A stretch of 27,218 nucleotides of DNA. Origin: Methanocaldococcus sp. 16A (GTDB taxonomy: Archaea; AGJL01; Methanococci; Methanococcales; Methanocaldococcaceae). The stretch lies in assembly GCA_049860595.1 (NCBI GenBank), contig CP187552.1; one strand, written 5' to 3'. The position numbers were made by a program. This document shows positions 24,001 through 27,000 of this stretch, piece after piece (within the stretch, counting starts at the first letter, position 1; each line of letters opens with the position of its first letter).

Positions 24001-27000
24001 GATATTATCTTCCTGCCAAAATATTATATTCCAGATGGTTTCATAAATATCCTTTCCCTGGAAATGATAGGCCCATGATTGTAAGCTAATAATCTCATCT
24101 TCATTAAGTTTTGAATACATCTCTTTCCCAAGGTCATCTAAATATACATGGGGCGAGGTAATAAATTGATATGCTGCTATAATTAAAGCCCCAATTAAGA
24201 AATATTTCTTTAAACCCAATATTATCACCGATTAATCTATTTAATCCTATATCTATTTATACATGATTTTTAAGCCTTTTTTTAAATATCTATAAAAGTA
24301 ATCAAAGAACCATTTGATTACTTTTGGTTAATTATTTTCGGACACTAAAGGGATACTATGAGAGACAACTGGGACATGGAACTTGACTACGAAGACACAA
24401 AAAAACTCCTCATAAGTTATATTGAGTATTATAGACACAAAAAACCTCTTTATAAAAAAGATAAAATAGCTCTCTCTTATCTTATCGCTGGCTTAATCCA
24501 ATTGAGAAATGGAAGCAGAATAGGAGAAGCTATTGAAGGGCTGATTAAAATAATCTCAAATAATGAGAAAGAAGTTAAAGTTAGAGTAGAAAAAAGAAAA
24601 GGCAACACTATGAGAAAAATAATCCTTCCTAATGAAATTACAGATGAGGATTTAAAAACTATTAAGGAGGTGGTTGAAAGTTGGAAAGGAAAAGATTTGA
24701 GAAGGTTGGCTAACAATGCTTCAAAATGGTTCTTAACCAACTTAAAGATTAATACGCACTCTCTAAGGTATGCTTACATCTCCTACTTAGGAAAGCAACA
24801 AATCCCAGCCCAAATTATTGCATCAATAACCAAACACAAAAATATGAACATGGTCATGAGATATACCCAAGAAAAAATAGCTGACGAGATTTTGAGGAGA
24901 TTAGGATGATTGAAATTAAATTCTCTAAAATCCCAAAATGGGAGGAGATTAATAAAATTATCAAGCAATCTAAACACTCCCTCATCTTATTAAAATTCCC
25001 TAAAAGCGTTTATGAACATCCTAAAATGCAATACAAACTCGAAGTTTTAAAACAAGAGCCAAATATTTTTATTGATGTCGAAAATTCAAAAAGGGGGAAA
25101 AAGAGAGTTGTTGATGACAATACAAGAGAGAAGATAATTACTTTACTGAAAGATGGTTATCCAATTAGAAGAATTGGAGAAGAATTGGGATTGGCTAAAT
25201 CTACTGTTTGGGATTATGCAAAAGAATATATTAAAGAATTGAAAGAAGAGCATCTTAAAAATCTAATCTGGAAATATAAAGAAAAACTTATTGAAGAAGA
25301 TTTATGGGACAGCATCGTTGAAATGCTGTTTTTAGAATTAGAAATGCACATTAAAAATAAAGATATTGAGCAGGCTAAAAAGAAGCTTGACGAGATTATA
25401 AATTATGTTAATTCAGAAGAAGATTATATAGTCTCTTAAAACAATTCTCAATCTTTACATATGTACGAACAAGTGCTACGATAATAAATGCGATGACTGG
25501 GATAATACACACATCTAAAAAAGTATAAATGGCTCTTTTGAGTTTTGGGATAATTTTCTTCTCCAATATATCTGTTATAATGTCAAATACATATAGGAAA
25601 AATATCACCAACTGAATAAACAATATTATGGACAAAATAACATTCATCATTCTTCACCTCTGTACAATTATTTTTCAATTTGTTTTAATATACTTTCAAT
25701 TATTATTCCAATCTCGCTCCCTTTCGCAATCATTCTCTCTCTTCCTTCACTTTTAAACTTTACAAAATAAGTTTTTTCGCTTTCATAAAATGCAATTAAC
25801 TCATCTTCAAAAAGCAGTTTTTTATTTTTATATTCATTTTGAACTTCTTCCCATGTCAGCAATATCCCACCTTTTTTAAGCCATTCATAAACTCCCCTTT
25901 CTATATTATATTATTATATTGTATATATGACAGAGGAGTCATTGCTACGGTCCTATAAAAATTAGTTAATTAGAATTAATCAATTATTAGGAGTAAAAAA
26001 GAAAAAAGAGAAGCTGGAGGAAATTATTCATTTGAATAGCAAGGAGTGTATATTCTTACATTTATGTCTAATTCACTTTGCTTTTTTAAGAACTTTACAA
26101 TTTCTATGAATATATTGTCTAAACTTCTATATAAAAATTCATCGTTTTTCTTATCGTATGTTCCTATACTATATATTTTTAATTTATTATTTATATCATT
26201 GTCAATGTCTATTGGTTCATATTTTTCTTTATTTCTTTCGATATGCCCTATTATTTTGCTTAATATCTCTTTATTGGAGGAGATTGTTATTTGAGGAATA
26301 CATCTATCATCATATATTATATTAACTTCACACCTACTATTTACCATATCCTATCACCTCTTTATAATCATATCTTTGGGGCAAAAGCCCCATACCGCAT
26401 CGGTCTGATTTTAAAAAGGAAAAAGGATTTTAAATAATTACGGAATGGATGTTATCTTCCTCGTCAATTATGTTTATTACAAACTCTACTTTATCTGAAT
26501 ATTTTTCTTTTAGGTAATTTTCTATCATTTCAGTGTCAATTTCATCTTCTTCTTTATCATATTTCTCAGAGATTTCTGCTTTTATTTCTTCTTCACTCAA
26601 AAACTCATCACTATATTTTTTAATTAAATCTATGATGTTCAGATAATCACTTACAAACTCAATATCTAATAAATCTCTAATAATTTCAACGAGTGAGAAG
26701 TCATCAAATACTGAGTTTAATGCTACATAGTCATAGTCAAATTTAGTTCCTGTCATACCTATGTCGTCCCATTTTTGCCAAGATGTAGAAAATCTGCCAT
26801 ATGAGAGATAGTAATAATGAACTCCCCTCTCAAGTTCTATTTGCCATCCATAACAATTCCCAAAACCTTGATTTCTTAACGGCTCAACTCTGTGAATTAT
26901 ACTAACTTTTTCTACATTTTTATCTGCATGTTTTATTTCTTCAAGGAATTCTTCTTCTGAAACTTCTTTATCGTTTATCTTGTATGTTGCTTCTACTAAT

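Follow-up and report, generated by a model that had tools for sequence, protein, structure and literature searches.

How does an element persist in a cell whose CRISPR arrays are half filled with perfect spacers against it, and what does a lone copy of the host CRISPR repeat do inside one of its operons? Both questions are raised by the window analyzed here, which is the whole of contig C2 (27,218 bp) in the three-contig genome of Methanocaldococcus sp. 16A; the other two contigs are the chromosome, C1 (1,580,187 bp), and C3 (13,123 bp). C2 is a circular extrachromosomal, plasmid-like element of this heat-loving methanogen. Solitary repeats that act as RNA anti-CRISPRs (Racrs) are known mainly from bacterial phages. 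An earlier note on this DNA had singled out a solitary repeat unit, here called SRU2, as an RNA anti-CRISPR or a Cas6 processing site. The present analysis covers this single genome and is based on sequence data. By its sequence, SRU2 is a mimic of the host type I-B repeat. That it is also a Racr-like decoy and Cas6b substrate, placed in an anti-CRISPR operon within a type IV-B cassette, may well be correct and is the reading we tentatively favor.

SRU2 matches the host CRISPR repeat

SRU2 lies between two co-oriented minus-strand open reading frames (ORFs) at 26430-27050 (206 amino acids, aa) and 26024-26347 (107 aa). The two features at issue are:

26390-26415, minus strand, SRU2, solitary copy of host CRISPR repeat positions 1-26 (repeat search and profile comparison)
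26377-26392, minus strand, 6-bp GC hairpin UGGGGC-UUUU-GCCCCA (fold prediction)

The minus strand from 26415 to 26386 reads TTTAAAATCAGACCGATGCGGTATGGGGCT. A fuzzy search recovered 256 copies of the 30-nt host repeat from seven C1 arrays, with the consensus ATTAAAATCAGACCGAT[T/A]CGGTATGGAAAC. When SRU2 was compared with these 256 repeats, every base at positions 2-26 was one used by the host, including the loop G at position 18, which falls on a variable site (T in 187 copies, A in 68, and G in 1). SRU2 departs from the host at positions 27-29, where it has GGC and the host has A in 256, 256, and 255 of the 256 repeats. This comparison, which had been set as a check in the earlier note, identifies SRU2 as a true mimic of the host repeat family. 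The sequence reading and the ORF map also agree with the previous description of a solitary, sense-strand repeat between two co-oriented orphan genes.

Identity between SRU2 and the consensus is 24/30. No second repeat-like unit was found on C2, where the runner-up site reaches 18/30, and 30 shuffles peak at 18-20. This score gap and the unique hairpin indicate that SRU2 is real and not a chance match. It belongs to no direct-repeat family, and Rfam returned CRISPR-DR matches below threshold only. Outside the arrays, no solitary copy was found at 22/30 or better in the 1.58-Mb chromosome, nor at 19/30 or better in the host cas locus. By contrast, a 4.85-kb cassette of the element holds two solitary repeats, SRU2 and a unit of another family, SRU1.

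A GC hairpin takes the place of the handle

Type I-B Cas6b leaves an 8-nt 5′ handle on the CRISPR RNA (crRNA), and this rule places the predicted Cas6b cut in SRU2 at 26394|26393, between repeat positions 22 and 23. The hairpin begins 1 nt past the predicted cut and takes over and sequesters handle positions 2-7 (in the plus-strand reading, TGGGGC-AAAA-GCCCCA at 26377-26392). The GGC that stands in place of the invariant handle AAA forms part of this hairpin, which bears out the earlier statement that the handle is replaced and locked into a 6-bp hairpin. No other all-GC 5-bp hairpin exists on C2 (200 shuffles gave a mean of 0.095 and a maximum of 3). At 80-85 °C it is the only self-stable helix (-3.4 and -2.4 kcal/mol), and the host repeat is unfolded at 80 °C. 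SRU2 keeps the single-stranded 5′ region, the ACCG/CGGU stem, the predicted cut site, and 4 further nt, and the analysis supports this retained part as what a Cas6 substrate would need.

The 3′ end of SRU2 also admits a neutral origin. Terminal repeats of the host arrays are degenerate at positions 25-30, and the sole host repeat with a G loop is a terminal repeat. SRU2 could be a relic with a terminal-repeat-like 3′ end, now idle, that was left by collapse of a plasmid array to one unit or copied ectopically through recombination with a host array. Cas-less arrays occur in two congeners, on G007:C2 and G003:C2, out of 10 secondary contigs compared from 8 genomes. Stand-alone repeats that are sporadic and often partly degraded are described in PMC10120712. 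A relic is a possibility to be taken seriously, though an unlikely one. The chromosome has no ectopic copy in 1.58 Mb and the cassette has two solitary repeats in 4.85 kb. In SRU2, 25 consecutive positions are intact and the three invariant handle bases are all altered, in the way that builds the element's only all-GC hairpin. SRU2 begins 15 nt past the stop codon of the 206-aa gene, inside an operon, which is unlike an array site; no leader-like sequence was found upstream of it or of SRU1, and its flanks match no host spacer.

The host arrays target the element

C1 carries one complete type I-B locus adjoining an array, with the gene order cas6-cas8b-cas7-cas5-cas3-cas4-cas1-cas2 and full-length profile matches. 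There is a single cas6, which encodes Cas6b (C1:675256-675978), and two Cas10 family profiles gave no match in the host. The arrays of C1 are:

46777-51184, CRISPR array
325743-327590, CRISPR array
520759-522167, CRISPR array
540894-543426, CRISPR array
683710-686770, CRISPR array
996109-999286, CRISPR array
1216214-1216781, CRISPR array

The arrays hold 249 spacers (236 unique), and 128 of these match C2 at a cut-off of at least 80% of length and at least 85% identity; 114 are exact over their full length. C2-matching spacers per array number 35/65, 20/37, 20/46, 3/8, 24/45, 12/21, and 14/27, and they are grouped in leader-proximal blocks. The protospacers lie on both strands throughout C2, including the csf genes of the type IV-B module and the 206-aa gene. 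Among 110 unique perfect protospacers, C is found at -3 in 102, at -2 in 104, and at both positions in 97, which gives 5′-CCN as the protospacer adjacent motif (PAM). Mismatches occur in 4 of the 128 matches only, so there is no sign of mutational escape and interference seems not to clear the element. Since 128 of 249 spacers target an element that is still present, the element needs counter-defense. A working type I-B system should destroy such an element, yet C2 was assembled with its host: interference may be blocked, the host system may be silent, or the culture may be mixed. Blocked interference is the outcome that an anti-CRISPR would give.

The persistence of a targeted element is here seen in an extreme case. 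Two features of the arrays themselves were also observed. The newest spacers (the first 1-6 at the leader end of most arrays) are short (18-41 nt), AT-rich, C-poor, and alike in composition, and they match nothing in the genome. Identical spacers recur within arrays, one of them four times in 683710-686770 and others as duplicated pairs in two further arrays, which suggests internal duplications.

The operon around SRU2 and a possible decoy RNA

The features of the operon and its control region are:

26430-27050, minus strand, 206-aa orphan gene (ORFan), candidate anti-defense protein, very acidic (isoelectric point 4.3, 51 D/E)
26413-26424, minus strand, two T5 tracts (TTTTTCCTTTTT) between the 206-aa stop codon and SRU2 (sequence reading)
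26024-26347, minus strand, 107-aa ORFan downstream of SRU2, Shine-Dalgarno GAGGTGAT 7 nt before the ATG
27057-27117, minus strand, promoter/operator of the 206-aa gene, TTTATATA box and perfect palindrome TTCTATATTATAGAA
122-182, minus strand, second promoter/operator copy upstream of the regulator gene, 85% over 61 nt
1-117 (5′ part) and 27120-27218 (3′ part), minus strand, 71-aa winged-helix (winged helix-turn-helix, wHTH) regulator gene spanning the contig ends

The 206-aa protein belongs to no Pfam, PADLOC, or NCBIfam family, has no relative in 39 other genomes of the order or in viral contigs, and finds only itself among 5.8 billion clusters. Its AlphaFold model is of low confidence (predicted local distance difference test score of 50). 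The 107-aa protein has no Pfam, PADLOC, or NCBIfam match. A search for its relatives returned itself and two long repetitive proteins, which were taken as low-complexity matches and set aside, and an Atlas search with the flanking proteins gave no usable match. The palindrome is perfect at exactly the two places on the element listed above. By position only, the wHTH gene is Aca-like and the layout resembles an Aca-controlled anti-defense operon. A third copy of the operator palindrome, with 2 mismatches, is located at 25899-25913, just beyond the right direct repeat of the cassette and upstream of a 64-aa ORF (25668-25862).

In the proposed mechanism, the operon of the 206-aa gene, SRU2, and the 107-aa gene would be transcribed, and host Cas6b would recognize the 5′ region and the ACCG/CGGU stem and cut after position 22. 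The upstream RNA would carry a genuine crRNA 3′ tag and no 5′ handle and would stay on Cas6b. It would then seed non-productive Cas7 assemblies, competing with more than 100 element-targeting crRNAs for Cascade parts. The downstream RNA would have a handle without AAA and with positions 2-7 held in a thermostable hairpin, and for both reasons should not be loadable as a guide; in addition, the 107-aa mRNA may have its 5′ end shielded by the hairpin. Three steps of this scheme are inferred: read-through of the T tracts, binding and cutting by Cas6b, and inhibition. Support for the last two is indirect, in that the element persists although 124 of the 128 matching spacers are perfect.

A decoy is the best supported reading, and its closest model is RacrIF1 (Camara-Wilpert et al. 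2023, PMC10651486). There, inhibition is due to the RNA upstream of the Cas6f site, the stem is required, and the handle can be changed. The first two features are kept in SRU2 and the third is lost. As with the Racrs, SRU2 is a single host-like intergenic repeat on a mobile element whose host has the matching subtype; the Cas6-binding part is kept in SRU2 and the handle is dispensable in RacrIF1, and SRU2 lies beside candidate anti-defense genes and an HTH regulator. Unlike RacrIF1, it belongs to an archaeal host with a type I-B system, and the available parts of PMC10651486 describe no type I-B Racr test. SRU2 is located in an mRNA after the 206-aa gene and not in a small RNA right behind a promoter. 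Its handle is swapped for a thermostable hairpin, and it is linked to a type IV-B module.

Several points weigh against a decoy. SRU2 has a T at position 1, where A is invariant in the 256 host repeats. Tested Racrs have a promoter within 250 bp upstream (PMC10651486). No consensus promoter was found within 250 nt upstream of SRU2, the nearest TATA box and operator being 640-700 nt upstream, and the T5 tracts may be an archaeal terminator, so that SRU2 may be reached by read-through only. RacrIF1 also blocks primed adaptation (PMC10651486), and a block of this type would fit poorly with more than 100 acquired spacers unless acquisition was naive or came before the repeat. With regard to conservation, and to covariation with host repeats, genus-wide BLAST found relatives for the backbone genes of the element only and none for the cassette, and 25900-27218 had no match in the plasmid collection. 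Inhibition could really be due to the type IV-B proteins or the ORFans, with the repeat idle. Finally, a mixed culture could account for finding spacers and element together.

The predicted RNA structure bears on a different use of the same cut. The minimum-energy fold of 26440-26340 (101 nt) has -32.5 kcal/mol and z = -4.07, with 0/200 shuffles as stable. In this fold the upstream U-rich CCUUUUUCCUUUUU pairs with AAAGAGGUGAUAGG, which holds the 107-aa Shine-Dalgarno, and two local hairpins lie between them. This fold keeps the lowest energy at both 65 and 80 °C. At 85 °C the GC hairpin alone remains, and the long-range A-U pairs may therefore be absent at growth temperature. SRU2 could accordingly be pictured as a Cas6-dependent mRNA processing or sensing site, at which a Cas6b cut would cap the 107-aa mRNA with the hairpin that starts 1 nt past it, free the ribosome-binding site from the U-rich strand, and tie expression to CRISPR activity. 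This role is quite unlikely. Only the GC hairpin is left at 85 °C, no precedent was found for Cas6 control of a non-CRISPR mRNA in archaea, and the 107-aa protein has no assignable function in family searches. It overlaps with the decoy reading because both need Cas6 recognition.

SRU2 lies in a bounded cassette with a type IV-B module

The wHTH gene starts at 117 and ends at 27120, crossing the contig ends, and C2 is therefore circular. Two 48-nt direct repeats divide the circle into a 22.3-kb part and the 4.85-kb cassette, which spans 25984-27218 plus 1-3613:

3614-3661, plus strand, left 48-nt direct repeat, cassette boundary (repeat search, 96% identical to the right copy)
25936-25983, plus strand, right 48-nt direct repeat, cassette boundary (repeat search, 96% identical to the left copy)

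The cassette contains a type IV-B module together with SRU1, SRU2, the wHTH gene, and the two ORFans. Its genes are all on the minus strand, in the order csf1, cas11, csf2, csf3, cysH-like, wHTH, and 206-aa gene, followed by SRU2 and the 107-aa gene. The type IV-B module, which was not in the earlier note, sits between the two solitary repeats:

2866-3486, minus strand, csf1, Cas8-like large subunit (PADLOC PDLC01721, 8e-43; NCBIfam type IV match below cut-off; true start probably the ATG at 3453)
2469-2972, minus strand, cas11 of type IV (PADLOC PDLC01694, 1.1e-10; no NCBIfam match)
1609-2469, minus strand, csf2, Cas7 of type IV (PADLOC PDLC01724, 5.4e-66; NCBIfam match below cut-off)
932-1609, minus strand, csf3, Cas5 of type IV (PADLOC PDLC01727, 1.5e-56; TIGR03116, 1.9e-24, below cut-off)
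227-928, minus strand, cysH-like gene of the phosphoadenosine phosphosulfate (PAPS) reductase family (PF01507, 1.1e-19)

The cysH-like gene is a hallmark accessory gene of type IV-B systems, and by these profile matches csf1-cas11-csf2-csf3-cysH-like is the defining type IV-B architecture. No Cas6, Cas1, or DinG was found among the 20 element ORFs scanned, a set that does not include all small ORFs, and no CRISPR array was found on the element. Csf2 has 122 relatives, mostly from archaeal thermophile metagenomes, with a best identity of 65% and none in the 39 other genomes of the order or in viral contigs. Gene order is conserved over 105 Csf2-relative loci (csf3 in 97, csf1 in 93, cysH in 76, and cas11 in 74). 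Both ORFans are absent from all 105, and arrays are nearby in 3 of them (L033, L075, and L090). A crude scan of these loci detected no Methanocaldococcus-like solitary repeat (best 20/30); it is a weak test for solitary repeats of other families because the hosts' own repeats are not known.

The second repeat of the cassette and the arrays of its family on secondary contigs of congeners are:

3540-3569, plus strand, SRU1, complete 30-nt solitary repeat of the CCTC/GAGG-stem family (Rfam CRISPR-DR39, 36.8 bits, gathering threshold 39)
G007:C2 (L152), 1319-1866, cas-less array, 9 repeats
G003:C2 (L148), 10716-11139, cas-less array, 6-7 repeats

SRU1 lies just upstream of csf1 and points away from it, so that SRU1 and SRU2 bracket the csf1-cas11-csf2-csf3-cysH operon in inverted orientation, both facing outward. 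As previously stated, the two repeats share sequence, which amounts to the 12 nt TAAAATCAGACC, and have different stems (CCTC/GAGG in SRU1 and ACCG/CGGT in SRU2). The SRU1 family (31 nt, CCTC/GAGG stem) forms arrays in the chromosome of one congener (G016), has one match in G008, and makes up the two cas-less arrays listed, whose spacers have no match among the sequences compared. The suggestion that the two repeats address two host families stands for SRU2, which matches the family of this host; for SRU1 it stands in part, as its stem family occurs in congeners in chromosomal arrays (G016) and also in cas-less arrays on secondary contigs. A TATA-like box is found about 50 nt upstream of SRU1, as in the cas-less congener arrays, and SRU1 may for this reason be a one-unit plasmid array. 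Like SRU2, the cas-less arrays reside on mobile elements of the genus, and their repeats agree with chromosomal repeats in the 5′ 14 nt and in the 8-nt handle. Unlike SRU2, these arrays contain spacers and full handles, and guides can be made from them. Cas-less mini-arrays carried by viruses or plasmids are said to have been described by Medvedeva et al. in 2019 (PMC6858448).

The outward-facing repeats on both sides of the csf-cysH operon could point to an RNA partner of the type IV-B complex itself. The Csf complex, array-less and Cas6-less, would use Cas6b-cut SRU1 and SRU2 RNAs as a scaffold or recognition RNA, and the repeats would be minimal "arrays". The RNA source of type IV-B is not known, recombinant complexes bound heterogeneous RNA (PMC8175902), and a mini-array of two repeats lies at the type IV-B locus of a Bathyarchaeia virus (PMC10848311). 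We consider this very unlikely, given the destroyed handle of SRU2, the arrays at 3/105 Csf2-relative loci, the lack of a Methanocaldococcus-like solitary repeat at these loci (whose hosts' repeats are not known), and the survey of PMC7038947, whose available parts report no SRUs or mini-arrays adjoining type IV-B loci. The sequences downstream of SRU1 and SRU2 have no host target either; chance matches of 13-16 nt occur in the chromosome and of 9-11 nt near the cas locus.

A regulatory mini-array or cr-like RNA of the CreA type was considered and rejected, with no second unit (best 18/30) and no target in the chromosome or near the cas locus. CreA and cr-like RNAs (Shmakov et al. 2023, PMC10120712; phage crlRNAs, bioRxiv 10.1101/2024.10.29.618823) resemble SRU2 as repeat-like sequences outside an array, in a cas locus or on a mobile element. 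They differ in having two repeat-like units and a spacer with a promoter seed match beside a PAM, whereas SRU2 is single and without a target.

The gene set and order of the module, its plasmid-like setting, and its lack of Cas6, helicase, adaptation genes, and array agree with type IV-B as described (Pinilla-Redondo et al. 2020, PMC7038947; Taylor et al. 2021, PMC8175902). The survey also reports a negative correlation of type IV-B with type I-B hosts. Unlike the surveyed loci, the module is flanked by two solitary repeats, and its host is an active-looking type I-B strain with many spacers against the element; judged by the available parts of PMC7038947, the locus is a counter-example to "no SRUs at IV-B loci". 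The Fuxivirus locus (Bathyarchaeia virus, PMC10848311) is likewise on an archaeal mobile element, combines type IV-B with a cysH-like gene and a repeat, and has a cas7 hit by a host spacer. It differs in its mini-array of two repeats and one spacer; C2 has two repeats that each stand alone and differ in family, one of which is truncated, and 128 host spacers against it.

The cassette as a whole could also act as one RNA-protein device. A nuclease-less Csf complex would capture Cas6b-cut RNAs, either the SRU decoys or host crRNAs that share the AUGGAAAC handle, or both, and would starve or out-compete the type I-B system as acquisition continues. Such a device is rather unlikely. If it exists, it would explain how the element coexists with more than 100 perfect, PAM-flanked spacers and would give type IV-B a function, the crRNA-neutralizing role that was raised and judged unlikely by Pinilla-Redondo et al. 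(PMC7038947). A 2024 review states that the function of type IV-B is still unknown (PMC11656645).

These features make one complete genome a natural test system: the type I-B host is intact, and half of its array content consists of perfect spacers against an element that it still carries. One bounded cassette joins the type IV-B genes, a precise mimic of the host repeat whose hairpin looks purpose-built, another solitary repeat, two promoters under HTH control, and the ORFan pair. It becomes testable whether a repeat decoy can block an archaeal type I-B system, whether type IV-B has a part in counter-defense, and how adaptation can continue while interference fails. Should the repeat prove idle, the strain remains a rare example in which the target tolerates massive targeting.

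The remainder of the element

The 22.3-kb part encodes an MCM helicase, an RNase H-like exonuclease, two tyrosine-recombinase-like genes, and large surface-type proteins. For its backbone genes, other genomes in the genus contain relatives at 65-81%. In viral contigs, searches with exact repeat patterns had 0 matches. No paper describing the element was found, and the supplementary SRU and type IV-B locus lists of PMC10651486 and PMC7038947 may already include it. The recombinase-like genes are:

14857-15675, tyrosine-recombinase-like gene
24358-24909, tyrosine-recombinase-like gene

These genes raise the idea that SRU2 is an attachment site (attP), whose 25-nt identity, typical of the size of an att core, would let the element integrate into host CRISPR repeats; a streptococcal prophage is reported to integrate in this way (work cited in PMC10651486). 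It is extremely improbable here. No integrated copy or hybrid junction was found, and the matches to the element in the host arrays are spacers only, in arrays that are uninterrupted and whose longest spacer is 52 nt. SRU2 lies about 1.5 kb away from the closest recombinase gene, and the true recombination sites look to be the 48-nt direct repeats. A host spacer (C1:686165-686208) covers the left junction at 3604-3642, so the joined form of the cassette existed at spacer uptake. The cassette may be a cointegrate or an excisable unit.

C3 matches itself at an offset of 6,562 bp in its 13,123 bp, which points to a small circular element in dimeric form or doubled by the assembly; 0 host spacers match it. 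On C2, a perfect 23-nt inverted repeat pair (6358-6380 and 7159-7181) is spaced by 778 nt. It adjoins a cluster of GC-rich hairpins at 7255-7565, in an otherwise AT-rich element, that could be an origin or a non-coding RNA region. An 843-aa ORF (20493-23024) contains degenerate tandem-like repeats at 22455-22752 that code for Asn/Pro-rich repeats, and its product resembles a surface or adhesin-type protein.

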